This document shows, piece by piece, positions 8,817 to 47,006 of a DNA stretch of 64,000 nucleotides (position 1 is the first letter of the stretch; each line of letters begins with the position of its first letter). The stretch is from positions 48,308 to 112,307 of the forward strand of contig CAYIFB010000001.1 in assembly GCA_964362665.1 (NCBI GenBank), read 5' to 3'. Below the pieces are notes generated by a model that saw nothing but the letters and a program-made list of their open reading frames with translations, searched no databases and had not been told where the DNA came from. This stretch comes from an uncultured Gammaproteobacteria bacterium (lineage in GTDB: Bacteria; Patescibacteriota; Microgenomatia; 2-02-FULL-39-11). Position numbers and translations under genes: made by a program.

Positions 8817-8828
8817 AAAACTGTCAAA

Positions 8829-9311: not shown

Positions 9312-9312
9312 T

Positions 9313-9846: not shown

Positions 9847-9848
9847 AA

Positions 9849-10565
9849 TTATTTCGAGACCTTTTTTTTGCCAAGTACTGCTGCATTTTTACGATAAAAT
9901 TGTTTCAAGTGATCGAGGGTGAGAGGTATAATCATTTTTGGCAGTTCCTTAAAAGTTTCGACAGTAAGATAGTCTGCAGATAGTATCCATTGGTTCGTTT
10001 CAAGCCGGAATTTAATTCTGCACCCTTCCATCAGATCCCAGACAGTAAATTTTTTCAGTAAAAAATAATAATCAACAAAATCTTTTACTGTTGCTCGTTG
10101 TTGAATAGTTGCAAATTTATTAATCGCGATATCAAGTAAACTATCAATAGCAAGTCCATTATAATCAATACCTTTCTCAACACGTTTTCCATAGTATTTA
10201 GAAAAATCGACTTTTAATTCGTATTGCGGAGAGAATCGCAGCAAACATTGATATAAAGAATCAAATGGAGATTTAACTTTAAATGTAAAATGATGCTTTT
10301 CACCTTGTTTTATTAACCACTGGAAAATAAATGGAATATCCAATGGTTCTTCTGTGAAGAAATCAAGATCTTCTGAATAGCGGTGATGAAGATAAAATGC
10401 ACTTAACGCAGTTCCTCCGGTAAAATAAAATTTTTTCCGGAAATACCCATCTCTGCTTACTTCATCCAATATGTTTTTTTGATATTTGGTGAGGATTTGT
10501 ACTTTCCCCATATTAAAAGTTCCAATAATAGTTTGCACATAGGAAATAGATGAAGTTTGCCCCAA
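9849..10565 (-). CDS. Nucleotidyltransferase, AbiEii/AbiGii-toxin-like (DUF1814-type). The real start is probably the internal ATG at 10511.
   Basis: Motif FYFTGGTALSAFYLHHRYSEDLDFF (GGTAL…DLD nucleotidyltransferase signature). Paralog of the 33343-33990 gene. Confidence 0.6.
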   Translation of the reverse strand: MGQTSSISYVQTIIGTFNMGKVQILTKYQKNILDEVSRDGYFRKKFYFTGGTALSAFYLHHRYSEDLDFFTEEPLDIPFIFQWLIKQGEKHHFTFKVKSPFDSLYQCLLRFSPQYELKVDFSKYYGKRVEKGIDYNGLAIDSLLDIAINKFATIQQRATVKDFVDYYFLLKKFTVWDLMEGCRIKFRLETNQWILSADYLTVETFKELPKMIIPLTLDHLKQFYRKNAAVLGKKKVSK

Positions 10566-27732: not shown

Positions 27733-29469
27733 ATGTGCGGCATTGTAGGAAAAATATATTTTCATCCTCATACGATTCAAAAATCAAAAGAGAGTGTTCT
27801 TATTCAAAAGTCTCTTGAAAAACTGCACCATCGGGGTCCTGATGATAGGGGATATTATATAGATGAAAATGTTTGGTTGGGATCGACCCGGTTAAAAATA
27901 CTAGATCTTTCCCCTGCCGGACATCAACCTTTTCAAAACGAAGATAAAAGTTTGTCACTCGTATTTAATGGCGAGATTTATAACTGGAAAGAGATAAAAG
28001 TAAAGTTAAGAAAAAGACATAAGTTTATTTCGCACACAGATGCAGAGGTCTTACTGCATTTATATGAAGAGGAAGGAGTAAATTGCCTCAAATACCTTCG
28101 TGGTATGTTTGCCTTCGCCATTTGGGATAAAAAGAGAGGAGAGTTATTTATAGCACGAGACAGAATCGGGAAAAAACCGGTAAAATATTATTACAACGAT
28201 AAATTTTTTGTATTTGCCTCAGAACTGAAAGCATTTATTGATCATCAGGATGTTCCAAAAGAGATAGATTGGGAAGCTATTGATGAATTTCTTATCTGTC
28301 GATATGTTCTATCACCTAAAACCGGGTTTAAGAATGTCTACAAGCTTCCTCCGGGGCATTATATGAGAGTCATGTCTACTGGAGAAGTTGTGATTAAAAA
28401 ATATTGGCAATTAGATTTCAGTCAAAAATTAGCATTATCAGAGCAAGAATGGCAAAAGTTAATATATGATAAGTTATTAGAATCTGTCCGTTTACGATTG
28501 CAAAGCGATGTTCCACTGGGAGTACATTTATCAGGGGGAATTGACTCAAGTTTGATTACAGCTTTGGTAAGTTTGGAGTCAAAGAAACAAGTAACAACCT
28601 TTTCTATAGGATTCGAAGAATCAGAATACAATGAACTTCCTTATGCACAACTTGTGACAGATCGATACAATACAGATCATCATTCCATGATAGTTAGATC
28701 TGATGTAATAAATCTCCTTCCGCAATTGATTTATCAATACGAAGAACCTTTTGCCGATCCTTCGATGCTTCCCACCTGGTATTTGATGAGAGAAAGTAAG
28801 AAGTTTATGACAGTAGCGATAAACGGAGAAGGCGGTGATGAGAACTTTGCCGGGTATCCATGGTATTTGTTTACGAGCTTCAATAATATCATGAAAAGAT
28901 TACCTTTAAAAACACAAATGAGCTATATCTTTAAAAAATTATATTCAACAACAAAAAGAAAAGATTTTGATACCTTGGCAAAATATCTGCTATCAAAAAA
29001 AAATTTTTCAAATCTGGACGAACATCTTCACCATGATATAAGCCATTATTTACCGGATGATCTTCTTGTAAAAACAGATATTTCATCGATGGCACATTCT
29101 CTTGAGGTTCGCTCCCCTTTTCTTGATCAGGAATTTGTAGAGCTTTGTGCAAAAATGCCAGCAAATTTGAAGCTTCGGAAATTTCAAAATAAGTATATAC
29201 TAAGAAAAACAGCAGAAAAGCTTATTCCTAGAAAATGTTTCACGAGAAGAAAGCAAGGATTTTTACCTCCGCTTGATCGATGGTATAGAGGAGAGTTATC
29301 AGGATTTATAGCATCTCAGTTATTAGATAAAAAATTTCTTTCTTATAATATTTTTAAAAAGGAAAGTGTAATAAAACTTTTAACAGATCATCAAAATTGG
29401 TCATCTAATAACGCCTATATATTGTGGACGATATTATGTTTGAAAAATTGGTTAGATGAATGGTTTTAA
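27733..29469 (+). CDS. asnB: Asparagine synthase (glutamine-hydrolysing), AsnB family
   Basis: MCGIVG N-terminal nucleophile (Cys2). SGGIDSS PP-loop. Located in the glycan locus, as is common for AsnB-like amidotransferases. Confidence 0.8.
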   Translation: MCGIVGKIYFHPHTIQKSKESVLIQKSLEKLHHRGPDDRGYYIDENVWLGSTRLKILDLSPAGHQPFQNEDKSLSLVFNGEIYNWKEIKVKLRKRHKFISHTDAEVLLHLYEEEGVNCLKYLRGMFAFAIWDKKRGELFIARDRIGKKPVKYYYNDKFFVFASELKAFIDHQDVPKEIDWEAIDEFLICRYVLSPKTGFKNVYKLPPGHYMRVMSTGEVVIKKYWQLDFSQKLALSEQEWQKLIYDKLLESVRLRLQSDVPLGVHLSGGIDSSLITALVSLESKKQVTTFSIGFEESEYNELPYAQLVTDRYNTDHHSMIVRSDVINLLPQLIYQYEEPFADPSMLPTWYLMRESKKFMTVAINGEGGDENFAGYPWYLFTSFNNIMKRLPLKTQMSYIFKKLYSTTKRKDFDTLAKYLLSKKNFSNLDEHLHHDISHYLPDDLLVKTDISSMAHSLEVRSPFLDQEFVELCAKMPANLKLRKFQNKYILRKTAEKLIPRKCFTRRKQGFLPPLDRWYRGELSGFIASQLLDKKFLSYNIFKKESVIKLLTDHQNWSSNNAYILWTILCLKNWLDEWF

Positions 29470-32048: not shown

Positions 32049-32318
32049 ATGAAGATAGTAAAAAAGGTATTTGAATACGAGTTACCCATAAAAGTCCAGA
32101 AAGAAAAAGACGGTTATATTGCCACTTGTCCGATCTGGAATGCTTGTTATGTTCAAGGAGATACCATTGATGAGGTAACGGCAGAAATTACCACAGTTGC
32201 CCAGGTGTTAATCGATATTTATAAAGAGGAAAATTTAGCTATTCCCCTAAAAAAGGTAAATGAACAATCCGTAAAAGAAAAATTCTCTTTCACCCTACCA
32301 GTGCTCGTATCTGCATGA
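32049..32318 (+). CDS. hicB: HicB-family antitoxin (UPF0150, RNase-H-like fold)
   Basis: EYELPIKVQKEKDGYIATCPIWNACYVQGDTIDEVTAEITTVAQVLIDIY matches HicB. Confidence 0.7.
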   Translation: MKIVKKVFEYELPIKVQKEKDGYIATCPIWNACYVQGDTIDEVTAEITTVAQVLIDIYKEENLAIPLKKVNEQSVKEKFSFTLPVLVSA

Positions 32319-32533
32319 AGATTCCACCTCTTTCCTATAGGGACGTAATACACAAAGCAAGAAAAGCAGGGTTCGTATTCAGAAGAGCAACTGGCGGGAC
32401 TCATGAAATTTGGTGGAATGAGAAGAAAAGGAAAACCGCAGTTATTCCTCACCATCATGAAATCCGTCCCGGAACCATTAGAAGTATTATCAAACAACTG
32501 GGGATAACCGATAAAGAATTCTTAAAATTATGA
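32315..32533 (+). CDS. hicA: HicA-family mRNA interferase toxin
   Basis: GFVFRRATGGTHEIWWNEKKRKTAVIPHHHEIRPGTIRSIIKQLGI matches HicA. ATGA overlap with hicB. Confidence 0.7.
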   Translation: MKIPPLSYRDVIHKARKAGFVFRRATGGTHEIWWNEKKRKTAVIPHHHEIRPGTIRSIIKQLGITDKEFLKL

Positions 32534-32574
32534 GAAATTCATATCCCTTCTTGCTGATCAACCAAATGAGGTAC

Positions 32575-32606
32575 TTTTTCCTCCTCTCCGCGATGATTCT
32601 GGCGTG
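32575..32606 (+). repeat. Second copy (3' portion, 32 nt identical) of the Wzy-like gene 3' end. A diverged upstream part begins at ~32538.
   Basis: ttttcctcctctccgcgatgattctggcgtga is identical to 31979-32010. Confidence 0.85.
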
Positions 32607-32608
32607 AA

Positions 32609-33019
32609 TTGATATGTTTTGAAGTAGTTGATTTAACTTATTTCACATGCCAGAATATACTTATGATAACAAAAAATGATCTAGGACAATTAAGGAAAGG
32701 TTTAGGGAAAGAAATTGGTGATTCGGCAAATAAACTGAAAGAAGAATTAAAAGCGGAAATCAATGCTTCAGCAAAAAGTCTCAGAAAAGAATTCAAAGAG
32801 GATATCGAAACCGCAGTAGTTCAAGTTATTAATGCAGTTATCAAACACACTGCCTCAAAAGAGGAGTTAAAGAGAGTTAAGGGAGAATTGAGTGAAAAGA
32901 TTGATACTATAAAATCAGAATTAAGTTCAGAAATAAAAGCCGATACTCCTACCCCGCAGGAATTTACAAGTCACGAAAAGAGAATAAGTAAATTGGAATC
33001 TGCTGTGTTTCCTTCTTAA
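32609..33019 (+). CDS. Hypothetical coiled-coil protein. The probable start is the internal ATG at ~32663.
   Basis: Lys/Glu-rich heptad-like sequence. No recognisable domain. Bounded by copies 2 and 3 of the Wzy 3'-end repeat. Confidence 0.35.
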   Translation: MICFEVVDLTYFTCQNILMITKNDLGQLRKGLGKEIGDSANKLKEELKAEINASAKSLRKEFKEDIETAVVQVINAVIKHTASKEELKRVKGELSEKIDTIKSELSSEIKADTPTPQEFTSHEKRISKLESAVFPS

Positions 33020-33066
33020 ATCCTTCTTTCACACCCCACAAATGCGCTATCTTTTCCTCCTCTCCA
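33019..33066 (+). repeat. Third copy (5' portion, ~47 nt with 1 indel) of the Wzy-like gene 3' end
   Basis: aatccttctttcacaccccacaaatgcgctatcttttcctcctctcc matches 31948-31995. Confidence 0.85.
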
Positions 33067-33148
33067 CTCTTATCTTAAGCCAGGAATGTACATTACCAGT
33101 ACGAACGTATAGTCATTTACCGGGAGAAAGTGATATACTTGGCTAATT

Positions 33149-33412
33149 ATGCTCAACTGGAATGTTGATGAGAAAAGGTTTATAAAAGAAGACCCGGAGG
33201 GGTATAAACGCTGGAGGATCGAACAACTGATAAATTACGGTCTGGATGGAGAAAAACTGGACAAGGATGAGGTAAAAAAAGCCTGGCCCATGATAAAAGA
33301 GAACATTGATCCGTATAAGCGCAGGCTTATAGAATATATCTTATGGGAAAAACTATACTTACTCCCACTCAACGGAAATTTCTGGAGTGCATCCAGAATT
33401 ACGAAGAGATAA
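33149..33412 (+). CDS. Small partner protein of the nucleotidyltransferase module (putative antitoxin-like). Paralog of 10457-10741.
   Basis: See the alignment under the 10457-10741 feature. It overlaps the downstream gene by 70 nt in a different frame, as in the first copy. Confidence 0.5.
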   Translation: MLNWNVDEKRFIKEDPEGYKRWRIEQLINYGLDGEKLDKDEVKKAWPMIKENIDPYKRRLIEYILWEKLYLLPLNGNFWSASRITKR

Positions 33413-33990
33413 CCCGCTGGTTTTATCTGACCGGTGGAACTGCTCTTTCGGAAGATATTGATCTGTTTTCTACAAGTGAAGTAGATGATAAGACTATTGA
33501 TAAATTTTTGGATGATATTCGTCCACAACTGCAAATTACTTCAATAAAAAAAGACCATATTTCAGGATTGTTCTTATATAAATTAACTTTTTCAAACGGA
33601 GAAACATTGAAAGTTGATTTTAATGAATATGCATTTGAACCAATTGAAAAAAGTACTAAAAATTTCGGGAAATTACAGGTAGACAGTTTCTACGATATAG
33701 CAGTAAATAAAGCCTATACCATATCGGGACGCTTTAAATCTCGTGATTTTATCGATCTCTATTTTATCCTCATTCGAGAGGAATTCTCTTTTGAACAAAT
33801 TCTTTCGCGTGTACCAGATAAATTTGGAGTGCAGATCGATTCAGTATTTTATGCAAGCCAACTTCTTCGGGCAGGTGATTTGCCAAAAGATTATCCCCCT
33901 ATGCTTGTCCCTTTTGAATTTGATGATATGGTGAAGTTTTTTGTGAAAGAAGCAAAACGATTGGGAAAAAAGGCTTTTAAGAACCCTTGA
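33343..33990 (+). CDS. Nucleotidyltransferase, AbiEii/AbiGii-toxin-like. Paralog of 9849-10565.
   Basis: WFYLTGGTALSEDIDLFS nucleotidyltransferase motif. Similar length and architecture to the first copy. Confidence 0.6.
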   Translation: MGKTILTPTQRKFLECIQNYEEITRWFYLTGGTALSEDIDLFSTSEVDDKTIDKFLDDIRPQLQITSIKKDHISGLFLYKLTFSNGETLKVDFNEYAFEPIEKSTKNFGKLQVDSFYDIAVNKAYTISGRFKSRDFIDLYFILIREEFSFEQILSRVPDKFGVQIDSVFYASQLLRAGDLPKDYPPMLVPFEFDDMVKFFVKEAKRLGKKAFKNP

Positions 33991-34014
33991 TTTCCGATCT
34001 TATTATATTTATAC
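33986..34014 (+). promoter_or_regulatory. Sigma70-like promoter candidate (TTGATT-17-TATACT) for the cassette-1 exported protein and peptide
   Basis: Read from the sequence immediately after the nucleotidyltransferase stop. The downstream ATG is at 34029. Confidence 0.3.
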
Positions 34015-34532
34015 TGAAGTTAGCGACTATGTATCGAACCCTAAAAATTCTATTTGTAATTTTGTTGGTTCTGACGATTACAGAAGCAGGATATTATATT
34101 TACGTATTAAAATATCCTATTAAACCAGCCCAAAATAACCCCTCATTAGCTCCAAGTATATCTTCCGATCAAAAAATTGACAGGAGTGCATATCTTTTTG
34201 ACCAGATTACAGCCTCTGATCCTTATCAGTTCGTAAAACACTTCGGTATGAATGATAATCAGAATTTATATTTAATTCTTGAGCAAAAAGGAATTGCACA
34301 GATAGATAAATCCGATGACGGTAAAGACATATATCTCACCATACAAAACGATCAGCATAAAAAAATCGTAAGCATTAATATAGTCAATTCCCTGAAAATT
34401 ACGAAGATAGTAAAGGGTGAAAAAACTCCGATTAGCAAGGACCAAATTAAAACCGGAGACAATATTCTTTATACCCTGAAAGGTGATTTAGTTGACCAGA
34501 AAAAAAGCAGTGGAGAAATTACAATCTTATGA
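33987..34532 (+). CDS. Cassette 1: membrane-anchored/exported protein. The probable start is the ATG at 34029 (MYRTLKILF…).
   Basis: N-terminal TM/signal anchor LKILFVILLVLTITEAGYYIYVL, then PIKPAQNNPSLAPSISSDQKI. The first ~50 aa are near-identical, at DNA level too, to the 36317 paralog. The C-terminal domains differ. Confidence 0.5.
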   Translation: MISDLIIFILKLATMYRTLKILFVILLVLTITEAGYYIYVLKYPIKPAQNNPSLAPSISSDQKIDRSAYLFDQITASDPYQFVKHFGMNDNQNLYLILEQKGIAQIDKSDDGKDIYLTIQNDQHKKIVSINIVNSLKITKIVKGEKTPISKDQIKTGDNILYTLKGDLVDQKKSSGEITIL

Positions 34533-34729
34533 GAAAAAATCCCTTTGCTCCTTATTGTAAGCCCAAAATTAATACGAAAAAGATCAACTTTCTTGTTATG
34601 TTTGGGCATTCATTTCCTGATGAGAACGGTTATCTAGCACAAGTTTGTGATTGTGGAGCGCCATGCTACGGCAATGTTATAGGGAGACCCTGTTATTGTC
34701 TGAATGGGACGGGGGGATGTTCTAGCTAG
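34529..34729 (+). CDS. Cassette 1: Cys-rich small peptide (candidate precursor or secreted disulfide-rich peptide), translationally coupled (ATGA) to the upstream gene
   Basis: 66 aa. Leader-like N-terminus KPKINTKKINFLVMF shared with the 36879 paralog. Core VCDCGAPCYGNVIGRPCYCLNGTGGCSS has 6 Cys, is Gly-rich and ends in C-terminal Ser-Ser. Confidence 0.5.
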   Translation: MRKNPFAPYCKPKINTKKINFLVMFGHSFPDENGYLAQVCDCGAPCYGNVIGRPCYCLNGTGGCSS

Positions 34730-34731
34730 GT

Positions 34732-35547
34732 CTAAGCACTGTTGTTTATCTTAAGTAATTCGCATATCTTTTCTTCATTTTTGGCAAAATAAAGAAGATA
34801 AAACCTCGGATTAGACTTGACGAAATTCATAATCGTCTTGATCTGACTTCTCATATCTTTTTCAAGACTCCATGTTTGGGCTGAAATTAGAGTGATAATT
34901 TTATTATTATTTTTCAACTGTATCAACCGGCAATCTTTTGCTTTACGCAGAAAATAAATGCTTTCAATAGGATATCGTTTAAAAGTTTTTTTGATCCATT
35001 TGTACTTTTCCACCACCGGTGATTGATAAAAATAGAAACTATTATTTTCCTTAATGATAATACCGCTTTCATCAACAAGGGGGATCGACTGTCTTCTCGT
35101 CAGATTTAAGATGGTCGATTTGCCGGCTCCGGAAGGGCCGACAAACACATGTGCTTTTCCGTCAATTTCTACAGCTGAACAGTGAAGAAAGAAACCATTA
35201 TTCTTTAAAAGAGCATTCTGAACGACGCGAAGTAAAAGCGTGATGAAGTGATTGATACTGATATGAAGATAGGTGAAAACCTTATTATTCTTCACATGAT
35301 AAAAAGCGAGAGTGAAATAAGGCAGTTTTAGCTTTTTTTGAAACACGTAAGGGGCAGAAGGTAAAAAGTTTATTTCTGTGAGGCATTTTTTGCCTCTTTG
35401 ACCTTTTACAATAAAACCCGCATAAATATTGTTAATTTTTTCCCGGATATTATTTACCGGATTTTTACCCTGCGTCGGGGCAAACTTCAGTTTGATGAGA
35501 AAACCTGCAATGTAAAAATACAAAACATTTTTTTTCATATACTTCAA
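34732..35547 (-). CDS. HPr-kinase-C-terminal-domain-like P-loop kinase (HprK-related / lasso-peptide-kinase-like)
   Basis: FFLHCSAVEIDGKAHVFVGPSGAGKSTILNL resembles the HprK active-site P-loop (G-x-SG-x-GKS). Convergent with, and 2 nt from, the peptide gene. Confidence 0.6.
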   Translation of the reverse strand: MKYMKKNVLYFYIAGFLIKLKFAPTQGKNPVNNIREKINNIYAGFIVKGQRGKKCLTEINFLPSAPYVFQKKLKLPYFTLAFYHVKNNKVFTYLHISINHFITLLLRVVQNALLKNNGFFLHCSAVEIDGKAHVFVGPSGAGKSTILNLTRRQSIPLVDESGIIIKENNSFYFYQSPVVEKYKWIKKTFKRYPIESIYFLRKAKDCRLIQLKNNNKIITLISAQTWSLEKDMRSQIKTIMNFVKSNPRFYLLYFAKNEEKICELLKINNSA

Positions 35548-35745
35548 GATTGAGAAGATATAAAAAATACAGTATTATCCTCTTGATATATGAATAAAAT
35601 CATCAGGATGATTAGATTTAAGCGTAAATTCTGTATTAAAGCAACTGGTAACAGCATGCTGCCTCTTCTTTTCTCGGGAGACGTATTATACCTAAAAAAA
35701 TTCACTTAAAGACGTCTGAAAAAACCTATATTCCCCTTTTTCTTT

Positions 35746-36228
35746 TTATATAATATTTAAGTCATCACCCAGCGGATGGTATTCGTCTTTGAGTAAATTT
35801 AAAATAGTGGTTTTTCCTGCACCTGAATTACCCAAGAAAACATAAGCTTTATGATTGATACATACTGAAGATGCATGCAGAAGAAATCCTCCTTCTTTTG
35901 CCAAAATGTCTTCGATAGCGTCGCGAAAAAGCAGGTTAAACTCCCCCAGATTCACGTGATAGTAAATTTCGCGATTATTGGAATCTATTTTTCTGCATGC
36001 CTTAAGGTAAATAAATTCATTTTCCCGGTAAAAGATACTGGGTTCACGAAAATCCACAAAGTGGATGATATGTAGAGGATTTTTTTTAGATATCGAAAAA
36101 TTCTTCAAATTAAAGATGACGTTTTCGATAAATTTCTCCCGATGCAGGATAAAAATGCTTTCATGAAACCTGAATTCCAGCACCATCCCTGCAATTTTGA
36201 AAAAATATGAAGAAGTCCCCTTGTTCAT
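35746..36228 (-). pseudogene. Truncated HprK-like kinase paralog (P-loop present, C-terminal ~110 aa missing or frameshifted)
   Basis: GFLLHASSVCINHKAYVFLGNSGAGKTTILNL, then a stop after …PLGDDLNII. A shifted frame just downstream translates …GEYRFFQTS…, which resembles the …YYGFQSP… block of the full-length paralogs. Confidence 0.5.
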
Positions 36229-36269
36229 AATTGTTAATGATACATCAAACGATAGTTTTTCATCAAAAC

Positions 36270-36298
36270 TTGACTAGAATCAATTTTGCGGATATTCT
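36270..36298 (+). promoter_or_regulatory. Sigma70-like promoter candidate (TTGACT-17-TATTCT) for cassette 2
   Basis: Read from the sequence. ATG at 36317. Confidence 0.3.
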
Positions 36299-36316
36299 TA
36301 ATAATAGATAGACATT

Positions 36317-36877
36317 ATGTATAAACTATTGAAAATATTATTCGTCTTATTATTGTTTCTGACGATTACAGAAGCAGGATATTATATTTACGTATTAAAA
36401 TATCCTATTAAACCAGCCCAAAATAACCCCTCATTAGCTCCAAGTATATCTTCCGATCAAAAAATTGAGCAGTTGAGAAGTAGCTCATCTATAGTTCCTC
36501 AAGTTACTCAAACAAACTTGCCAACCATACAGCCTCTCATTTCTTCTGATTCGATCACGTATCTTCAGAATATGAAGTTTGTGAAGAATAAAACAATTGT
36601 TGTCACCATCGAAGAGTCAGGATATGTTGATACTATTCAGCTTCAACCAAAGGGGAGTGCAACAGAATTAAAATTAGTTGATGAAAATGGAACCATAATA
36701 TCTGCAATTTCTAGGGATCTTGAATTTTGGAATAAAAATCTATTTAAAAAGATAGCAAACAGTGATGTTCCTTTCAGCATAACTGATCTTAAAAAAGGAG
36801 ACTTTATCATGCATTCATATCAAATGAACATAACAGACAATACAGATAATCATAAGTATGTAGTTATATCAAAATAA
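36317..36877 (+). CDS. Cassette 2: membrane-anchored/exported protein, paralog of 34029-34532
   Basis: MYKLLKILFVLLLFLTITEAGYYIYVLKYPIKPAQNNPSLAPSISSDQKI… The stretch 36360-36471 is ~100% identical in DNA to 34069-34180, then diverges. Confidence 0.5.
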   Translation: MYKLLKILFVLLLFLTITEAGYYIYVLKYPIKPAQNNPSLAPSISSDQKIEQLRSSSSIVPQVTQTNLPTIQPLISSDSITYLQNMKFVKNKTIVVTIEESGYVDTIQLQPKGSATELKLVDENGTIISAISRDLEFWNKNLFKKIANSDVPFSITDLKKGDFIMHSYQMNITDNTDNHKYVVISK

Positions 36878-36878
36878 T

Positions 36879-37085
36879 ATGAAGAATAAACAAATATATA
36901 AAAAGCCAGGTATCAAGGTTAAAAAAATTCATTTTAATGTTCTCTTTACCAATTTTAACGATAATTCTTTACTAGCACTAGTAGGACCGGGTCAACTATG
37001 TTGTGGAAATCCTGAACTCTATTGTCCTAGTTCCTGTAGTGGTGGTTGTAGTGTTTGTCCACAAGATGGGTACTGTGCATGCTAG
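36879..37085 (+). CDS. Cassette 2: Cys-rich small peptide, paralog of 34529-34729
   Basis: 68 aa. Leader KKPGIKVKKIHFNVLFTNF. Core GQLCCGNPELYCPSSCSGGCSVCPQDGYCAC has 8 Cys. Its start is 2 nt after the upstream stop. Confidence 0.5.
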   Translation: MKNKQIYKKPGIKVKKIHFNVLFTNFNDNSLLALVGPGQLCCGNPELYCPSSCSGGCSVCPQDGYCAC

Positions 37086-37900
37086 TTTTTAACCCTCTTT
37101 CCCATTAGAGTCACGAGCTTGTTTCCCTTATTAAATGAGAGAGAATAAAAATGATTGTGTCTTTGAATAAATGCAAATGCATTTTTTGTCGGCGGTTTCG
37201 TATGAGGGTCAAAAGTGAGAAGCTGTGCGGATAGAAGTGTTATTATTCTGGTAAGATCTTTGATCTTTGTTGTCCGGTAAAATTTTGCTTTGCGTAAAAA
37301 AAATATTCTTCCGACGAGATAATGCTGTTGAGTTTTTTTTATCCAGTCATTTTTTTCCCTGACTGGAGACTGGAATCCATAATATTTTTCTCCTATTTTT
37401 CTTACAATGAGGATGTCATCTGAAAAAGCCTGGAAACGCGGGTGTAAAAGTTTCATAGCCGTAGATTTTCCGCCCTCTGATTTAGCACAAAAGAGGAAAA
37501 GACTATTGTTTACGATTGATGCTGAAGTATGCAGAAGGAATCCGTCAGATCTTGAAGCAAGTGTTTGAAGTGCCGTAAGCAATATTAAATTAAACTGGTT
37601 TATGCTTATATGTTGGAATGAAAGAATTTTATATCTGTGTAATTTAAAAAAATGAAGCAGTCCTAAATTAGCATCTTTTGTTTTTCTCGTGAATATCGAT
37701 GGAAAATGTTGGAATAGATGAATGGTAAAATCTATTTTCGAAAGTTTCTTATTAGTTAGAAAAGCTGAATAGTGTTTTTTGATGTCATTCGATAGAGATT
37801 GATTTATCCAAGAGTCATGAATTTCTCTTTCTTGAGTAGGATTTAGAATAATCCTTATATTAAAGCCTCCGGTATAAAGGTCTATCCTCTGTGTTTTCAT
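37082..37900 (-). CDS. HPr-kinase-like P-loop kinase, paralog of 34732-35547
   Basis: GFLLHTSASIVNNSLFLFCAKSEGGKSTAMKLL. C-terminal block …YYGFQSPVREKNDWIKKT aligns with …FYFYQSPVVEKYKWIKKT. Convergent with the peptide gene, which overlaps its 3' end (ATGA-style). Confidence 0.6.
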   Translation of the reverse strand: MKTQRIDLYTGGFNIRIILNPTQEREIHDSWINQSLSNDIKKHYSAFLTNKKLSKIDFTIHLFQHFPSIFTRKTKDANLGLLHFFKLHRYKILSFQHISINQFNLILLTALQTLASRSDGFLLHTSASIVNNSLFLFCAKSEGGKSTAMKLLHPRFQAFSDDILIVRKIGEKYYGFQSPVREKNDWIKKTQQHYLVGRIFFLRKAKFYRTTKIKDLTRIITLLSAQLLTFDPHTKPPTKNAFAFIQRHNHFYSLSFNKGNKLVTLMGKRVKN

Positions 37901-39254
37901 GGATCGTATTATACCTCATACAACCCATTTTCTGATTCTGTTTCAGTGGTATACTTTCTCTGTTGTGACAGCGAACCATCTTCTTATTTTAAATAAGCTT
38001 CAGAAGAAACGGGCTTTCTGGCTTAAATGCGAGGGCATAAGCATGCTTCCGCTGCTTCGTCCCGGCGATATATTATTCTTTAAGAAAATCAAGTTTCATC
38101 AGACGAAGATAAATGAGATTATACTGGTAAAAAAGAGTAATAAAGAGATAGTCCATAGAGTTATTTATAAAAAAAACAATTATCTGGTTACTAAAGGTGA
38201 TCACAATCCTTTGTCAGACGGGAGGACAAATCCAAACGACGTTTTCGCGAAGGTAATCGCAGTAAAGAGAAGTAATAATAAATTCGATTTAGAAAGTTTA
38301 TATCTTTTCCAGTCAACTCTTTACTTTCAGGAAATAGTGAAGGTTAATAAAGCTTTCAGGAAAGAAAAAATTGCTTTTGTCTTTCTGAAAGGCCTTCCTG
38401 TACATCTATTTTATGAAAAAAAACATCCCCGTCGAATATATGCTGACAGCGATATTCTTATTGATCAGACTGATTACGAGAAAGTTGAAAAGGTTTTTAA
38501 GAGGAATGGATTTAAAAAAGTTGATGCTTCCTATTCTAACCTCCATAAACTATTAAAGGATAAACCCACGGAAGTAAGTTTTGTGAAAAAAGTAAATAAT
38601 TTTCCAGTAGTCTTTGACATCCATTTTGAGCCGGTATTTCTAATGAATCAGCTTGGGAAGCTTGATGCTTTGTATCCTGAGAAATTCATGAGGCAGTTGA
38701 CTAGTGATTTCTTACAGACGAAACTAGCAATAAAAGTACAAGGAGAACAATTCTTTATACTTGATATTTCCTACTTAATACTTTACTTAGCTTTGCATTT
38801 TTTCCATCATAACTATCGGGGAATATTCCGGTTACATTTTTTAGATCAGGTGATAAGATTTCGCGCCAGAGAATTAGATTTGGATAAATTGATATCGGAT
38901 ATTAATAAATATCAGGTGCAAAACTTTGTTTATCCGGTATTTTGGTTTTTACAGAAATACTACTCGACTCCGGGAGCCAGTCTGGTATTAAAAAGTATAA
39001 ATATCAAGTCTAAAGAGCTAAAATATATAAAAGAAAATATCTTAAATATCAATATTTTTGATGATGAGTCGAGGGTTCAGGCGGGAATTGCCAGATTTAA
39101 AAATATTTTTCAGCTCTCCCCTTCCCCGTTTTGGAAGAAACTGACACTTATCTTTAATCTGCAGATAATTTACAGCGTTTTCTGGGTTGGGTATTTGAAG
39201 ATTAAAAATTATCACAATTCCCGGAATTTTAATCCGTTTAATTCCGGACAATAA
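37899..39254 (+). CDS. Fusion protein: N-terminal SipW/Sec11-type (S26B) signal-peptidase-like domain plus C-terminal NTP_transf_5-like 'uncharacterised nucleotidyltransferase' domain
   Basis: Peptidase boxes CEGISMLPLLRPGDILFF (Ser), EIVHRVIY (His, ER-type) and TKGDHNPLSDGR. C-terminal domain IAFVFLKGLPVHLFYEKKHPRRIYADSDILIDQTDYEKVEKVFKRNGFKK resembles PF14907-type nucleotidyltransferases seen near lasso/HprK-related loci. The tail reads through a hairpin repeat. Confidence 0.5.
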   Translation: MDRIIPHTTHFLILFQWYTFSVVTANHLLILNKLQKKRAFWLKCEGISMLPLLRPGDILFFKKIKFHQTKINEIILVKKSNKEIVHRVIYKKNNYLVTKGDHNPLSDGRTNPNDVFAKVIAVKRSNNKFDLESLYLFQSTLYFQEIVKVNKAFRKEKIAFVFLKGLPVHLFYEKKHPRRIYADSDILIDQTDYEKVEKVFKRNGFKKVDASYSNLHKLLKDKPTEVSFVKKVNNFPVVFDIHFEPVFLMNQLGKLDALYPEKFMRQLTSDFLQTKLAIKVQGEQFFILDISYLILYLALHFFHHNYRGIFRLHFLDQVIRFRARELDLDKLISDINKYQVQNFVYPVFWFLQKYYSTPGASLVLKSINIKSKELKYIKENILNINIFDDESRVQAGIARFKNIFQLSPSPFWKKLTLIFNLQIIYSVFWVGYLKIKNYHNSRNFNPFNSGQ

Positions 39255-39298
39255 TATATAAAATTCCCGGAATTTAATCCGTTTAATTCCGGGAATTA
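39216..39298. terminator. Two tandem copies of a ~33-bp palindromic element (ccggaatt-N-aattccgg) between convergent genes. Candidate bidirectional terminator or regulatory hairpins.
   Basis: aattcccggaattttaatccgtttaattccgga (39216-39248) and aattcccggaatttaatccgtttaattccgggaatt (39263-39298). Both convergent ORFs end in …NSRN encoded by the palindrome. Confidence 0.4.
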
Positions 39299-39573
39299 AC
39301 TATAATTTTTTTCGCGAAAAGTTCTTTTTCCAGACCCAAGTAATCCTTTTGTGCTCGAATATTGGAGATTTTATATTTTTTTATCATCAGTTCGATTATC
39401 TCCTCCTTACTTAAACCCTTCTTGATTTTGTCAAAGATAAAAGAGGCTGTTTGGTTGAAGGTATAGAGCTGAGATTTCTCACCGTCAAAAATCGTAGTTT
39501 TATTTCCCAGTTTCTGGACGATAAAACCTTTGTTTATTTTATATTTCACCGTTGCGGATTTGGATGTTTTCAT
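39283..39573 (-). CDS. PqqD-family protein (RiPP recognition element / peptide chaperone-like)
   Basis: KGFIVQKLGNKTTIFDGEKSQLYTFNQTASFIFDKIKKGLSKEEIIELMIKKYKISNIRAQKDYLGLEKELFAKKII fits the PqqD pattern (hxxhxxgxxxhlxxxtgxhxxLNxtaxxIWxLldG…eihxxlxxxYdh…dvxxfhxxLxxxxhI). Confidence 0.6.
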   Translation of the reverse strand: MKTSKSATVKYKINKGFIVQKLGNKTTIFDGEKSQLYTFNQTASFIFDKIKKGLSKEEIIELMIKKYKISNIRAQKDYLGLEKELFAKKIIVNSRN

Positions 39574-39587
39574 CTAATATTTAAACA

Positions 39588-40415
39588 ATGAAAATAAAAA
39601 AACTTCTTTCCAGATACAAGACTTTGAATACGTTAATCGTTCTAACTCTACTCCTTCTTGGCTTTGCAATTCTTTATTTTCTCTACTACCGCCAGAGAAG
39701 TCAAGCATTTTTATATGCATCAGTCACTCTCATCAGACCGACTAATATTCCAATTAATGCGGCTTTTAATTGGGTGCCTTACTGGATTGCCAATTCCATC
39801 AATATAAATGACGTAGAAAAAAGCACTTTGGGAAGTCTTAACGCGATAGTTGTGGATAAAACAGCATATGAAGGTCAGGGGTACGGACAATATGTGTATT
39901 TACTTTTAAAAATTAACTCCGTCAAAGACAGATCGGGAGTTTATCTTTATAAAAATAAACCTTTGGTGGTCGGATCCATACTTGACTTAAAACTTAGTAA
40001 CACCCAAACACAAGCGATGGTGACTTATCTTGGTACAATGCCTCCCGTCTATAAATATAAGAAAATAATTTTGTCATTGAAAGGCAGGAGTTGGGAATCA
40101 TGGGTGGTGGACAGCATAAAAGAGGGCAGTGAAATCAAAGACTCCAAAGGGAAAACGATTGCTAAAATTATAGACTTGAAGTCAGGACCGGCGGAAGTCC
40201 GTTCTGATTCCTCTTTGGGGCAGGCAAAAGTTTCGTATGACCAGACTAGAAAAGATTTTACTATCAAGGCGGAAATGATTGTCCGTGATGATAATGGTAT
40301 ATATTACTTTGAAGAATTCCAAAAAGTTAAAGTTGCCGAAGGTCTGTATTTGACTTTTGCACAAAACAGCCTCTCACCTCAAATTTCATCGATTGAATCT
40401 GTGACAGATTTATAA
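39588..40415 (+). CDS. Hypothetical secreted/membrane-anchored protein
   Basis: N-terminal TM LIVLTLLLLGFAILYFLYY. No recognisable domain. Confidence 0.35.
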   Translation: MKIKKLLSRYKTLNTLIVLTLLLLGFAILYFLYYRQRSQAFLYASVTLIRPTNIPINAAFNWVPYWIANSININDVEKSTLGSLNAIVVDKTAYEGQGYGQYVYLLLKINSVKDRSGVYLYKNKPLVVGSILDLKLSNTQTQAMVTYLGTMPPVYKYKKIILSLKGRSWESWVVDSIKEGSEIKDSKGKTIAKIIDLKSGPAEVRSDSSLGQAKVSYDQTRKDFTIKAEMIVRDDNGIYYFEEFQKVKVAEGLYLTFAQNSLSPQISSIESVTDL

Positions 40416-42251: not shown

Positions 42252-45200
42252 ATGACGCATAAAATAATTTCTGCGTTGGTTTTTGTATCGGTAATATTCC
42301 TCCTATTCTTTATCTCTATAAAAACATCGCCATTAAGCGAAGTATCTGCTGCTACCTACTGTCCAGCCTTGGTATCATATTATGTTGGTCCGACGGCAGT
42401 AGCACCGGCAGCCAGGATATCAGTCACCTGTAATTATGGAGTGCAATTGTCGTGTATTGGAGCTAAAAGCGCGCCAACTGACTATACAAATTGCAATTGG
42501 CTTGGTTTTGGGGGAAATAATAATGCGCGGTTTTCTTGTAAAGTTCCGGCTACAGGAGGATTATATACGAATAAATGCACACTATCCAGTGGTGGCGGTG
42601 ATGATTGCTGTGTCCAAAGTGATCCAGCTGGTTCTTATGAAGTTTGCTCGGAAACTGCCCCTTCAGGACTGAATGTAACTAACTTAACCAATAATTCGGC
42701 TACTCTCAACTGGACTCCGGGGACAGCTATTGCGGGATCGGTACAGAAGTTACGGGTGGGGGCAAGTGCAAATGAGGTAAATACCGGGTGTAATGGCGGA
42801 TACGATCCTCCACTTACTCCTGCGCCGACCTGTGTTATAAAATCAGATTTACCCTTGAATACTTCATCACAGAATACCGGAGCTATTTTGAATTCTAATC
42901 AACTATATTACTGGAGAGTAGTAACTTTTCAGAGCGCGGCATGTTACGTTGACAACAGACCTCCAGATCAAAGCTTTACGACGCTTTTAAATCCGACAAA
43001 TACTCCCATTCTAATACCTACGAAAACACCTACGCCGACGGTAACTCCTACTTCTACGCCTACTAATACTCCTACTTCTACTCCTACTAATACTCCTACT
43101 TCTACTCCAACCGCAACTCCTACCGTAACCCTTACCCCAACTCCTATTTTTACCTGCGGATTGACAGCCTGTCCTGACTTGACTTGTTCCAATCCAATAC
43201 CGGCAAATTGTACTATCTGTACTGATTTTCTTTGTACTCAGCCTACTATAGCGCCGACAAATACTCCTACCGTTACTCCAACAGTTACTAATACACCCAC
43301 CTACACTCCTACTCCTAGCAATACACCTACATCTACACCCACATTAACACCAACCATTACACCTACAAATACGCCGACAGTGACTCCTACGATTACCCTT
43401 ACACCGACCGTAACCCTTACCCCAACTCCTGTAGGAGGAAATTACTGTGGAGCAGGTTGTCCGGATTTGGACTGTGCCAATCCGACTCCAGCTGATGGAT
43501 GTTCCACCTGTACTGATTTTGTTTGTAGCTTGCAGCCAACTTCGACTCCTACTTTAACACCGACATTAACACCGACTTTTACCCCTTCTCCTACTCCGAC
43601 GAGTACACCTACTGATACTCCTACTCCGACTCTAACGGAGACACCTACTCCAACACCCACAGTTACCTTGACTCCGACACCCACTTTTTATAATGTTTAT
43701 GGCTGGATTTATACGGAAACAAATAATACTGTAATTAGAAATGAAGAACAAAACGAAGGATTAATTCCTAATTATACGGTGGACCTGACGGGAGATCAGA
43801 CTCTTTCCACAACTTCTCAAGGCTCTCCTATTGCCGGATTTTTAGCAAATTATATCCTAACGCCTCTTTATAATGGCATATTTCAGCTGGAAATGGTTAT
43901 CACTCCGACAGGCTATACACTTTATAAAGGACCTCCGGGAGCCACTCCTTCTCCTTATACCAACCCTAAAGTCGTTATTTTAGCCGGAGGAGACGCTATT
44001 GGTGATTTTCCGTTTATTACAATTACTCCTTACATAAGTCCAACAGCTACTCCGACTGTCACGCCGTCTTCTACCCCGCCTCCAATTTCGCCAACGCCTA
44101 CTTCGATCTGGACTCCTACACCGTCTGTCGGACCAGGAACACCAACACCTACAAACTACGTTTGTCAGACACTGCCGACACCCATTCTGAACGCGCCGGC
44201 AGAAAATCTATGCACCAATATCAAACCGACTTTCTCAGCATATGTCCTGGATCCGAACAACGATAATGTCTGGGGTCATTTCTATAGTACTGATACTATA
44301 TCGTTTGATAGGATCGGTTCAGTGGTAAATCCAAGCGGAGGTAATAGTACCTGGATACCTGACGGCTCTGTTCTTAACAGCTCGGGAGCTTATATGTGGA
44401 CGGCTTATACGGAAACATCTTCCTGTCCGCGCTCATTTGATGCTCCAGCTAATCGTTTAAACATGGATTATACGGCTCCTCCGAAACCTCAATCGCCAAG
44501 CTGTAGCCTGACTAGTCAAAATTATATTACCGGCCAATGTTCTTTTCATTGTAGTTGGAGTGCTGATCCGGAACCGACTCCGCAATCCTGCAGTGATACC
44601 AATGATTATCACCCTGTTTTCAGGACTGATCCGGGACCAGGAGCTTGGGATCCGGGTTGGATTGGTAACAGCTTATCTACTGATGTGACAACAGAGGTGG
44701 CCCAGGAATTGTATGCCAAAGTTACGGCAAGGGACGGTCTTGGTAACACTTCAGAAACTTCAGATGAGTCGGTAAGTGCGGTTTGCCCTGAAATTATTTA
44801 TTCCGTCTCTCCAACTCCCGGTGGTCCGACAGCAACTCCTACTGGAGGGGTTATTCCAACAGTCACTCTTACACCCACAGCCACTCCAACTCCAACCCCG
44901 GGTATTTGGACCCAGGTTTTCGGCGGAGATATTTATGAGCCGTCTCTTCTGCAAAGAAATGTACCTTCAGGCAAATACTATTTGAATAATATAGATGTTG
45001 TCCCAACTCCGGTGAGCGCCGGAATACTTTGGTCGACTTCAGGAGCTGGGGATTTCGGAAATGGCTTCTCATCTCCTACAAACTGGCAGGTAGGATCAAC
45101 TCTTTCCAATACTTTTAATTTTTCTTATTATTGGGAAGCACTCAAGAATAATCCCGCTGCAGTAAACGTGAATAGTACGGTGATTCTAAATCCTACCGCC

Positions 45201-45614
45201 GCAATTAATCTGTATAACGTCGGTGGTTCAGTTACCTTAGAGGCTAATAGTTTAATCTTACCGGCATCAAAAGTGGCCATCTTTTTGATTACCGGCACTT
45301 TGGAGATTAAAAATAATTTTACTATAGCCAGCGACGAATCAGTCGTTTTTGTCGTCAGCGGCAATATTGAGGTTGACCCTAGTGTGACCAGAATAGACGG
45401 GCTTTTTATGGACAGCGGATCATTTACAGTTGCAGCCGGATCCGATCAGCTTGTGGTCAACGGTATGGTTTATACTACAAATATGAGTTTAAACAGAACT
45501 CTTCGAAGTTTTACCACACCTGCCTATAAATTTATCTATCAGCCGAAATATGTGATTACATTATTGCCATACCTGGGAAGATCACAGGTTAATTGGCAGG
45601 AGGCGGCGCCATGA
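42252..45614 (+). CDS. Large secreted surface protein: FN3-like region, long Pro/Thr (TPT) linkers, a twice-repeated 4-Cys module (C-x2-CPDL-x-C-x-NP-x-PA-x1-2-C-x2-CTDF-x-C) and a C-terminal beta-rich domain. Candidate pilus-associated adhesin.
   Basis: Signal peptide. [15 protein letters not shown] repeats. Modules [32 protein letters not shown] and [32 protein letters not shown]. Immediately followed by a PilX-like gene and pilMNO. Confidence 0.5.
43006..43690 (+). repeat. Low-complexity (ACN-CCN)n tracts encoding TPT linkers, interrupted by the two Cys modules (~43147-43245 and ~43441-43535)
   Basis: Read directly (actcctacttctacgcctactaatactcct…). The antisense ORFs listed in the track for this region are artefacts of the repeat. 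Confidence 0.7.
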
Positions 45615-46423
45615 GAAAAAATTCCGGACAAATTGTTTTAATACTTGTTTTAATCACCGTGGTTGGGTTAACTATCGGATTATCCCTGATATCAAGAACC
45701 GTGACAGATGTCAGAATTTCATCGCAGATTGAGGAATCAGGTCGAGCTTTTTCTGCTGCAGAAGCCGGGGTAGAAAACGCCCTAAAAGTGGTAAATGTTT
45801 TTCCTACCGGAACAACCAAATCTGTAAATTTAAATAATGCAACGGCAGATTATTCGGTATCTGATATGGGAGGCGATAGTAGTCTCTATTCTTTTCCTCT
45901 AGTAGAAGCTAACTCTTCCCAGCTTTTATGGCTGGTGAATCATAACTCTGATGGAAGTTTAGGTACCAATTATTATGACATTACAGGTTCGATCGATATT
46001 TGTTGGGGTGCGGCTGGAAATAAATCAGCAGTAATTCTAAGTTTATATTACGAAACAGGTGGTGAATATAAAATAGCCAAAGCATCATTTGACTCCATTA
46101 CCCGCGGCAACCAATTTGCCATAGCAGATACTATAGGAGGGCCTTTTTGTGGTAGTTCTTATATTTACAAACATACGGTAAACTTCAACTCTGATTATGG
46201 GTTAAGTTCTGCCAATTTAATAGCATTAAGAATGACACCTGTTTATGAAAATACCTCAATCGGCGTAAAACCTACTGCACAATTACCAGTGCAGGGAAAC
46301 CAGGTAAATTCTGTAGGTAAATCCAGTACAGGGGTGGTTCGCAAGATTCAGGTCAATAAAAGTTATAATCTTCTTCCCAATTTGTTAGATTTCGCTCTTT
46401 ATTGTGAGACCAGTTGCCAGTAA
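45593..46423 (+). CDS. PilX-N-like minor pilin / pilus-associated protein
   Basis: N-terminus [27 protein letters not shown] resembles the PilX N-terminal domain. Overlaps the end of the 1120-aa gene. Upstream of pilMNO. Confidence 0.45.
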
Positions 46424-46458
46424 TGTAAAAAAATATAACCGTAAATAAATCTTTATTC

Positions 46459-46490
46459 TTGACAATATATTTTAAATTAGTGGATAATCA
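46459..46490 (+). promoter_or_regulatory. Sigma70-like promoter candidate (TTGACA-18-GATAAT) for the 46501 gene. It shows that the TTG start in the ORF track (46459) is not real.
   Basis: A perfect -35 hexamer, followed downstream by an ATG at 46501 (MNKKLLVL…). Confidence 0.35.
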
Positions 46491-46500
46491 TTGTAGAGAT

Positions 46501-46905
46501 ATGAATAAGAAATTATTGGTTTTAACTTTAATATTGATAATTGCAGGAATAATAATCGGTTATTTATGGCAGTCCGGTTTGTATAATAATAAAACTTACA
46601 TTCCGGAAGTACAAAATCAACTTAACCAGAATCTACTAACACCAACAACAATCTCGTCGGTAACACTAATCCCAACTCCAACTTATCCGCCTTACTCATT
46701 ACAGATATCTGACATCGATGAAACATTCATATATGTTAAGAATCAAAAAGGTAGCGTCAGGCTAAGTAAATCTAAAGTTAAAGTTTTTAAAAGGTCAGGT
46801 GACCAGCTAAATCCTGCTACATTAAATGATCTAAGGATCGGTCAAAATGTCACAGTAAATGTAATTGAGGCAGGTAAAGAGTCGCATATTATTATAGAAT
46901 CCTAA
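46501..46905 (+). CDS. Small membrane-anchored/secreted hypothetical protein
   Basis: MNKKLLVLTLILIIAGIIIGYLW signal anchor. No recognisable domain. Confidence 0.4.
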   Translation: MNKKLLVLTLILIIAGIIIGYLWQSGLYNNKTYIPEVQNQLNQNLLTPTTISSVTLIPTPTYPPYSLQISDIDETFIYVKNQKGSVRLSKSKVKVFKRSGDQLNPATLNDLRIGQNVTVNVIEAGKESHIIIES

Positions 46906-46953
46906 CCGCATAAGATTAATTGTATACTACTCATCCTTTACTTGTTTATCCCA

Positions 46954-46982
46954 TTGACTTTTTTCCCACTTCTGAAGATACT
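46954..46982 (+). promoter_or_regulatory. Weak sigma70-like promoter candidate (TTGACT-17-GATACT) upstream of pilM
   Basis: Read from the sequence. Low information content. Confidence 0.2.
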
Positions 46983-47006
46983 TAAATAGAGTGACTTATT
47001 TTTAAA

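Follow-up and report, generated by a model that had tools for sequence, protein, structure and literature searches.

A locus at 34029–39573 of a 64-kb stretch of DNA (hereafter the window), part of the 112-kb contig CAYIFB010000001.1, was analyzed. It contains two small Cys-rich peptide genes, genes for P-loop proteins and a gene in which a peptidase is fused to a nucleotidyltransferase. The results suggested that it is probably a genuine gene cluster for peptides made on ribosomes and then post-translationally modified (RiPPs), similar to the clusters for linear polyphosphorylated peptides (LPPs) and encoding two precursor peptides, in a Microgenomates (Patescibacteria) bacterium with a tiny genome. 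The window sequence was also present in Hainich groundwater metagenomes. An earlier sequence-only reading had proposed here an uncharacterised peptide modification and export system, and all the open reading frames (ORFs) that it named were found in their places. The system has a precedent, however, and nothing in the window supported the export function.

The precedent is the LPP family of Bacillota (lppA-K-B-S-D-N), which has the same enzyme set (Popov et al., Nat Commun, May 2026; PMC13381572). The LPP clusters encode a SipW-like peptidase (LppS), a discrete RiPP recognition element (RRE; LppB), an HprK-like kinase (LppK), an uncharacterised NTP transferase (LppN) and an MsbA-like pump, and they lie inside capsular polysaccharide loci. 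The domains tabulated for them are TIGR02228, PqqD and NTP_transf_5, with either TIGR04249 (67 cases) or TIGR04352 (65 cases) for the kinase. The precursors are 35–200 aa long, with a conserved N-terminal YxxPxVLxHQxIxFETxxS sequence and variable C-termini. LppK adds one to four phosphates to core Ser3, which is at +18 in LppA, and LppS (S29/H68/D93) cleaves the leader only with LppB. The family was stated to be restricted to Bacillota (PMC13381572). The pair of kinase and nucleotidyltransferase has also been characterized in the lasso peptide pseudomycoidin, in which the kinase PsmK phosphorylates the C-terminal Ser, and the nucleotidyltransferase PsmN adds hexose(s) to the phosphate.

The locus had been read as containing two paralogous three-gene cassettes. 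This was confirmed by the P-loop, anchored-protein and peptide pairs, each of which was similar well beyond chance. The P-loop proteins (34732–35547 and 37082–37900, both on the minus strand) were 31% identical over 265 aa (E 2e-38). The anchored proteins (33987/34029–34532 and 36317–36877) matched with E 1e-24, and their first 50 or so codons were near-identical. The likeness between the peptides (34529–34729 and 36879–37085; E 5e-5) was confined to the leader in the N-terminal third. The genes of the anchored protein and the peptide overlapped by 4 bp (ATGA) in cassette 1 and were 1 nt apart in cassette 2. The P-loop genes were convergent with the peptide genes, in agreement with the previous reading, with a gap of 2 nt in cassette 1 and an overlap of 4 bp in cassette 2.

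The two small Cys/Gly-rich ORFs, both on the plus strand, had been proposed as substrates for modification. They were bona fide precursors, both carrying the YxxPx[ILV] leader. [Y/W]xxPx[LVI] is the motif bound by the RREs of lasso peptides and LPPs. In peptide 1 (66 aa) the leader contains Y-C-K-P-K-I-NTKKINFLVMF and runs to YLA, and the proposed core is QVCDCGAPCYGNVIGRPCYCLNGTGGCSS (6 Cys). In peptide 2 (68 aa) it contains Y-K-K-P-G-I-KVKKIHFNVLFT and runs to LLA, and the proposed core is LVGPGQLCCGNPELYCPSSCSGGCSVCPQDGYCAC (8 Cys). Peptide 1 as a whole has 7 Cys and 8 Gly, the seventh Cys being located in the leader; peptide 2 has 8 Cys and 7 Gly.

The RRE-binding motif was present in 52 of the 55 small ORFs found in related loci (see below), and leader statistics were taken from 52 unique precursors of these loci. 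The leader was N-terminal and basic, with invariant Tyr and Pro in Y-x-K-P-x-[ILVFM]. Beyond this motif were K/R at +8 and +9, hydrophobic residues at +10 and +12, N/S at +13 and F-F at +14 and +15. Ser and Thr were over-represented at +16 to +18 (33/52, versus 34% expected). A hydrophobic-hydrophobic-Ala motif was present at +20 to +40 in 44 of the 52, followed directly by the hypervariable region. The precursors lacked a Sec-type signal. Their cores ranged from the Cys-rich type of 20–35 aa found in the window to Gly/Ser/Cys-rich sequences, QGGYY repeats, stretches of 4–6 residues and Hint-fused forms.

The fusion gene (37965–39254, plus strand) encodes a SipW/Sec11-type Ser-His-Asp peptidase domain (about 37986–38300), an NTP_transf_5 domain with a DxD motif (about 38311–39254) and a hydrophobic C-terminal helix. 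The proposed fusion of these two domains was supported by the matches of the 451-aa ORF to NTP_transf_5 (PF14907; E 3.5e-22, 79.6 bits, cut-off 31.2), Peptidase_S24 (E 2.9e-5) and TIGR02228 (sigpep_I_arch; 50.2 bits, just under the cut-off of 51.85). Among solved relatives of the N-terminal domain, human SEC11A/C came out best with a profile of 24 orthologues. Invariant in these orthologues were the peptidase's HR and GDxN...D boxes, its S48, H86 and D107, and the DxD of the transferase (D183, D185). When LppS (sequence from the supplement of PMC13381572) was compared by hhalign with an alignment of the fusion protein (97.7% probability, E 1.3e-12), its experimentally validated catalytic residues S29/H68/D93 aligned with S48/H86/D107. 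The gene probably starts at GTG 37965 and not at ATG 37899, where the ORF opens, since residues 1–24 of the model were disordered, the start of the homologues was some 22 residues ahead of the GxSM box, and ATG 37899 overlaps the start of the divergent neighbor.

The fusion protein was common: at about 50% identity, the database contained at least 489 clusters of it. Its best relatives were in Gottesman-, Roizman-, Levy- and Beckwithbacteria, all of which are Microgenomates, and a tblastn search against plasmids gave no match. Supplementary Data 1 of PMC13381572 lists another Microgenomates protein, an ABC-type ATPase fused to a SipW-like peptidase, beside an RRE (OGV92686.1 / OGV92687.1), left as a singleton cluster.

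The gene facing the fusion gene (39283–39573, minus strand), previously read as PqqD-like, encodes a discrete PqqD-type RRE (E 3.2e-8 for PqqD, above the gathering score, and 1e-5 for lasso-type PqqD models). It is convergent with the fusion gene, an orientation shared by most of the related loci listed. Its nearest solved relatives were the lasso RREs TfuB1 and PbaB1.

The protein encoded upstream of each peptide had been called exported. One N-terminal hydrophobic segment was indeed present in each, but the proteins may be membrane-anchored rather than secreted. The first (ANCH1, 34029–34532, plus strand) is in an ORF that opens with TTG 33987 and likely starts at ATG 34029. The second (ANCH2, 36317–36877, plus strand) is 186 aa long. 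Both matched a hidden Markov model (HMM) of the ANCH family, a family of about 183 aa adjoining the precursors in related loci (E 1.6e-14 and 2.2e-18, respectively). A single hydrophobic helix at the N-terminus, in which a Glu is nearly invariant, is followed in these proteins by a Pro/Ser linker and, at the C-terminus, a beta-rich domain that carries a DLKxGD motif. They belonged to no Pfam or NCBIfam family. Forty homologues gave no recurrent Pfam family either; LytB_SH3 appeared in 2 of the 40, below the cut-off. A 148-aa ORF at 46459–46905 of the window, far from any precursor, matched the ANCH HMM weakly (E 7e-6) and may be a distant paralogue or a chance match.

For the conservation of these genes, 79 genomic loci around the fusion protein (L-numbers below) were fetched, all their ORFs were clustered, and HMMs were built. 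Many of the fetched records (L011, L014, L015, L017 and others) are titled 'uncultured Gammaproteobacteria bacterium', yet were Microgenomates by gene content and closest relatives; these titles look like placeholder mislabels. Co-occurrence was counted in the 37 Microgenomates loci with at least 5 kb on each side of the fusion gene. PqqD was near the fusion gene in 33 of them, ScmC (the P-loop protein) in 27, a leader-bearing precursor in 24, a membrane protein resembling DUF4330 in 23, an anchored protein in 22, YcaO plus nitroreductase in 15 and an ABC transporter in 5. The pattern of the window (PqqD, ScmC, precursor and anchored protein, no YcaO) was the single commonest (9/37). The anchored protein, precursor and ScmC formed a recurring unit, often duplicated together (L014, L018, L038, L044, L052), and about 25 ScmC genes lay no more than 9 nt from a precursor gene's 3' end. 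Co-conservation with small ORFs, which were often Cys-rich, was therefore strong in dozens of related genomes, and the refutation offered with the earlier reading, that such co-conservation would be lacking, clearly did not come about.

About 50 genomic loci carried the ScmC kinase. A homologue search by word index had under-reported these families (13 matches for ScmC and 3 for the anchored protein), whereas the HMM searches of the fusion-anchored loci found both to be common. The idea that ScmC serves solely as a partner of YcaO was rejected, because ScmC was present in many loci without YcaO. A literature search for the names ScmC and SynChlorMet matched unrelated acronyms only, and one for NTP_transf_5 (PF14907) matched just two papers, one of them an inventory of phosphonate biosynthesis with a single mention.

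The claim that the P-loop proteins are HprK-like kinases stood in part. Kinase 1, of the ScmC type with an HprK/PEPCK fold, has the motifs LHCSA...GPSGAGKST...LVDE. Kinase 2 has a variant Walker A (AKSEGGKST) and retains the His/Ser and DD motifs. No Pfam model scored above threshold in a local copy of Pfam; a precomputed annotation assigned the proteins to PF27840 'ScmC'. The HprK-type motifs (His, P-loop and LxDD), the fold and weak, sub-threshold matches to the NCBIfam models TIGR04249 (ScmC) and TIGR04352 (HprK-related kinase A) were in favor of the claim. On the other hand, Hpr_kinase_C (PF07475) gave no Pfam match, and TIGR00679 gave E 0.012 and 14.8 bits against a cut-off of 240. With HPr kinase/phosphorylase proper the P-loop proteins share only the fold and motifs.

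SynChlorMet ScmC (TIGR04249 / PF27840) and the HprK-related kinases A and B (TIGR04352/TIGR04355) are thus related to the window proteins by the Pfam ScmC assignment, the weak model matches and the association with PqqD. The scores were nevertheless far under the equivalog cut-offs (35 versus 125 bits; 18 versus 200 bits), and the radical-SAM/SPASM partners of SynChlorMet (ScmE, ScmF) were absent from the locus.

If ScmC were not a Ser/Thr kinase, it could catalyze another ATP-dependent step (carboxylate or amide activation, or phosphorolysis) or act as a scaffold or chaperone, and the primary modification would be nucleotidylation by the fusion protein. We consider this unlikely. The HprK-type motifs are conserved, and proteins matching TIGR04249 or TIGR04352 in LPP and lasso clusters have been shown experimentally to be kinases.

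The Cys residues of the cores were counted next to the presence of YcaO. In the YcaO-less loci, counting beyond the leader box gave an even number of Cys in 14 of the 15 Cys-rich tails (p 5e-4); counting beyond the Ala motif gave one in all 15. The tails linked to YcaO gave three even and five odd counts. The even counts suggested removal of the leader downstream of the leader box and pairwise use of the Cys residues. Such pairs would most simply be disulfides. No enzyme in the window targets Cys.

These counts bear on the possibility that the products are azole peptides of the linear azol(in)e-containing peptide/thiazole–oxazole-modified microcin (LAP/TOMM) type. YcaO and a dehydrogenase encoded outside the window would then heterocyclise the Cys residues, leaving ScmC, PqqD and the fusion protein only to recognize, tailor and cleave. 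The related Microgenomates loci with YcaO plus nitroreductase have the same leader, ScmC, PqqD and fusion protein, with the two genes adjacent and accompanied by ScmC and precursors, and the window covers 64 kb of the 112-kb contig. Tblastn with the proteins of sister loci, however, detected no similarity to YcaO or nitroreductase in the 64 kb, so that both the YcaO cyclodehydratase and the SagB-type dehydrogenase of the linear azol(in)e peptides are missing there; in the relatives, the distance from these genes to the precursor is a few kb at most. The YcaO-linked cores, moreover, are Gly/Ser/Cys-rich without parity bias, whereas the YcaO-less cores are like those of the window. We regard azole formation here as improbable.

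The YcaO and nitroreductase (SagB-like) loci themselves include L007, L014, L025, L027, L037, L039, L045, L055, L062, L065, L068, L077, L080, L081, L088 and others. Their cores are rich in Gly, Ser, Cys and Thr, and their products may be hybrids of the azole and phospho types.

The conserved synteny of the fusion gene and PqqD with genes for a sugar transferase, Wzy_C and glycosyltransferases could also mean that the fusion protein, PqqD and ScmC serve an envelope glycan pathway. These three would then be merely syntenic with the peptides, which would be ordinary unmodified, disulfide-bonded secreted peptides or bacteriocins with anchored immunity proteins. A few loci do have the fusion gene and PqqD without a detectable precursor. 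But the near-universal RRE-binding motif of the precursors, the lack of a Sec-type signal and the close abutment of ScmC genes to precursor 3' ends all argue against such an arrangement. PqqD domains are peptide-binding adaptors, and the homologous LPP peptidase needs the RRE to cleave its precursor (PMC13381572). This alternative, too, seems improbable.

A lasso cluster, with the asparagine-synthase homologue encoded 4.5 kb upstream (27733–29469) as the cyclase, is very improbable: lasso cyclases are Asn-synthase homologues, and the RRE and leader motif are lasso-like, but the upstream protein, encoded among glycosyltransferases, retains its N-terminal Cys intact along with complete GATase_6/7 domains, a B2 transglutaminase-type protease is lacking, the Asn-synthase family was not among the conserved neighbors in 75 loci, and the 4-residue and 150-residue cores are incompatible with a lasso fold. 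That lasso cyclase, B2 protease, radical-SAM enzyme and ABC exporter are missing had been noted before, and this was borne out in the 64 kb. Pfam and NCBIfam scans of the locus found no transglutaminase-like B2 protease or lasso cyclase, no radical-SAM gene was found in the window, and no MsbA-like or other ABC transporter was found among its scanned ORFs; YcaO was absent too.

The paeninodin/pseudomycoidin module (PadeK/PsmK plus PsmN) resembles the locus in its HprK-like kinase, nucleotidyltransferase, YxxP leader and B1-type RRE. It differs in that the window has neither the lasso cyclase nor the B2 cysteine protease, the fused peptidase being of the serine S24/S26 type. Nor is a Ser acceptor conserved at the C-terminus, where peptide 1 alone has Ser. 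Fusions of a nucleotidyltransferase with the B2 leader peptidase exist in some lasso clusters.

The reading as an LPP-like RiPP cluster rests on a closer correspondence. A TIGR02228-type SipW/archaeal peptidase, a discrete PqqD RRE, an HprK-like kinase and NTP_transf_5 are all in the window locus. So are a YxxPx[VLI] leader with hypervariable C-termini, one to three precursors per cluster and a polysaccharide locus as the surroundings, with no macrolactam cyclase. The differences are also clear. The host belongs to Microgenomates and not Bacillota. The peptidase and nucleotidyltransferase are one polypeptide, whereas the LPP peptidase stands alone. The MsbA-like exporter is missing, and only the 5 of the 37 relatives mentioned above have an ABC gene near the fusion gene. 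The FET|xxS box is absent from the leader, which is longer, and the Cys-rich cores contain Cys in even numbers. Each precursor has a co-translated anchored protein of no Pfam family and its own convergent kinase, and relatives add YcaO and dehydrogenase or a Hint-fused precursor. The parts are homologous to those of LPP at the family level; the system as a whole may share descent with that of Bacillota or may have been assembled in parallel.

Several results weigh against the LPP-like interpretation. The TIGR04249 scores were 35.2 and 18.4 bits, against a cut-off of 125. A profile of Microgenomates PqqD orthologues matched LppB with 35 bits and PbaB1 with 38 bits, i.e. it was no closer to LppB, and BLASTP gave no alignment between LppB and the window PqqD, the link being made only by profile methods. 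The enzyme set could therefore have been assembled independently. The Ser at the position equivalent to +18 of LPP is missing from both peptides: peptide 2 has Thr at +17, and peptide 1 has no Ser or Thr at +16 to +18 and a Ser at +19. The lack of an exporter in the 64 kb leaves secretion and disulfide formation unaccounted for. With 15 of 37 related loci adding YcaO and dehydrogenase and 64 of the 112 kb covered, heterocyclisation of Cys in trans is possible. Finally, LppN was inactive in a heterologous host, and the final LPP product has not been established even in Bacillota (PMC13381572).

Starting from the gene content, folds, catalytic motifs, leader motif, co-conservation and Cys parity observed above, a pathway may be proposed by homology to LppK/LppS/LppB and PsmK/PsmN, which would supply its chemistry, step order, cleavage site and acceptor residue. 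The PqqD protein would bind Y-x-K-P-x-I of the basic leader and present the precursor to the enzymes. The cassette-specific ScmC, as an ATP-dependent kinase, would then phosphorylate a Ser or Thr of the precursor, possibly iteratively. Candidate acceptors are the Thr at +17 of peptide 2, the Ser at +19 of peptide 1, and a core or C-terminal Ser. The NTP_transf_5 domain would add a nucleotidyl or glycosyl group to the phosphate or a hydroxyl, with a donor probably from the surrounding glycan genes. The fused SipW-like Ser-His-Asp domain would cut off the leader, most likely after hydrophobic-hydrophobic-Ala (YLA|QV..., LLA|LV...). The freed cores, one of about 29 aa with 6 Cys and one of about 35 aa with 8, would form three and four disulfides, respectively, outside the cell. 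The co-translated anchored protein could be a partner dedicated to its peptide, for example a receptor, a chaperone or an immunity protein; this role and the export route are speculative. Our confidence decreases in the order of cleavage after Ala, acceptor residue, disulfide formation and anchored-protein role.

The proposed cleavage site shows a hydrophobic(-3)-x-small(-1) pattern, which resembles the F-E-T site of LppS. This pattern is also like the specificity of ER and archaeal-type signal peptidases. On the other hand, the 29-aa precursors of L073 and L076 end four residues past the leader box (TMSY), so that cleavage nearer the box, as in LPP, is possible.

Precursors of 29–45 aa with the full leader were found at L038:9121-9249 and 9828-9965, L044:305-433 and 1009-1146, L036:8982-9116, L054:1494-1616, L017:11781-11912, L059:3237-3371, L073:8252-8341(-) and L076:2305-2394(-). 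The variable part after the conserved Ala is only 4–6 residues long in them (ATWV, APTSYL, AETI, DVPR, TLIR). Tandem precursors in L049 (137-511 and 545-925) have the same leader and cores of (Q/S)GGYYG repeats with no Cys.

In six related loci a Hint/intein-like domain was fused C-terminally to a precursor with a YxxP leader and a short Gly/Cys core: L006:3118-3702(-), L008:1893-2450(-), L068:6713-7270(-), L012:1731-2327(+), L027:3459-4037(+) and L062:2088-2654(-). The domain starts with Cys directly after the core and mostly ends with HN, without a nucleophile at +1. This architecture suggests that the C-terminus of the core may be activated as a thioester or cleaved. We know of no RiPP precursor with a comparable Hint 'follower'.

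Two features of the window indicated that the cassettes turn over. A near-identical DNA tract spans the 5' ends of both anchored-protein genes (34044–34183; 140/141 bp, 93.6% identity to 36332–36472), which indicates a recent gene conversion or recombination between the cassettes. A third ScmC copy between the cassettes (35701–36228, minus strand) was a truncated pseudogene. It had been described as frameshifted, which was not so: its ORF (35746–36228) ends at an in-frame TAA after codon 160, and the similarity runs for about 15–20 codons further in the same frame, to about 35701, and then vanishes. The C-terminal third, about 90 codons, is missing. The possibility that the 160-aa ORF is a working short paralogue was rejected, as the similarity passes through the stop codon. 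At L004:2847-3200 and L005:1256-1609, a 117-aa N-terminal piece of ScmC, broken off before the P-loop, was likewise found beside a full-length ScmC; its cut point differs from that of the window pseudogene. Decay of duplicated kinase copies thus seems to be recurrent.

The locus is set in a region for cell-envelope glycans. Encoded there are GT4 glycosyltransferases, sulfatase-like enzymes, PMT-like transferases, two Wzy_C proteins and a glutamine-dependent Asn synthase. The Asn synthase, the only one found, is the full-length protein at 27733–29469 (GATase_6/7 plus Asn_synthase) discussed above, and it is not lasso-cyclase-like. Following the PqqD gene is a gene for a 275-aa membrane protein with a weak match to DUF4330 (39588–40415, plus strand), of the family found near the fusion gene in 23 of the 37 loci; whether it belongs to the system is uncertain.

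Directly 5' of cassette 1 (32049–33990) are genes of the toxin-antitoxin type: a HicB-like ORF, HicA (with a precomputed HicA_toxin Pfam label in L001) and an AbiEii-like nucleotidyltransferase (E 1.6e-5). The stop codon of this last gene overlaps with the first anchored protein's ORF, the one opened by TTG. Just 3' of a Wzy_C gene, a 1120-aa secreted protein (42252–45614) combines long linkers rich in Pro and Thr with repeated modules that contain Cys, and has a weak ice-binding-like domain at its C-terminus. A run of seven small genes (5654–9846) carries N-terminal motifs read as prepilin motifs of the 'GFTL(I/V/M)ELL' type, preceded by a likely prepilin peptidase gene, and PilM-like and PilX_N-like genes (the latter by domain test) are at 45593–48035. 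These appear to be type IV pilus or pseudopilus genes, which are typical of Patescibacteria.

LPPs have been thought to be confined to Bacillota. As the window locus and its relatives show, this enzyme logic is also widespread among the Microgenomates, bacteria whose genomes are reduced and contain few biosynthetic clusters. The natural fusion of peptidase and nucleotidyltransferase argues that the nucleotidyltransferase acts on the same RRE-bound substrate. The one-to-one pairing of kinase, precursor and anchored protein, and the even Cys counts pointing to disulfides, offer further handles on the LPP question, as do the natural variants among the relatives, with YcaO add-ons, Hint-fused precursors and four-residue cores. 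We tentatively suggest, as a possibility held with rather less than even confidence, that these loci form a phylum-wide, previously unrecognised Microgenomates branch of kinase/nucleotidyltransferase RiPPs. One fusion protein and one RRE would serve interchangeable cassettes of anchored protein, precursor and kinase, tied to the envelope glycan machinery. The products would range from tetrapeptides to disulfide-knotted, azole or Hint-activated peptides, and the anchored protein would represent a peptide-specific partner of a new class. If this is true, the products may be, for example, phospho-glycosylated surface or host-interaction peptides of these episymbionts.

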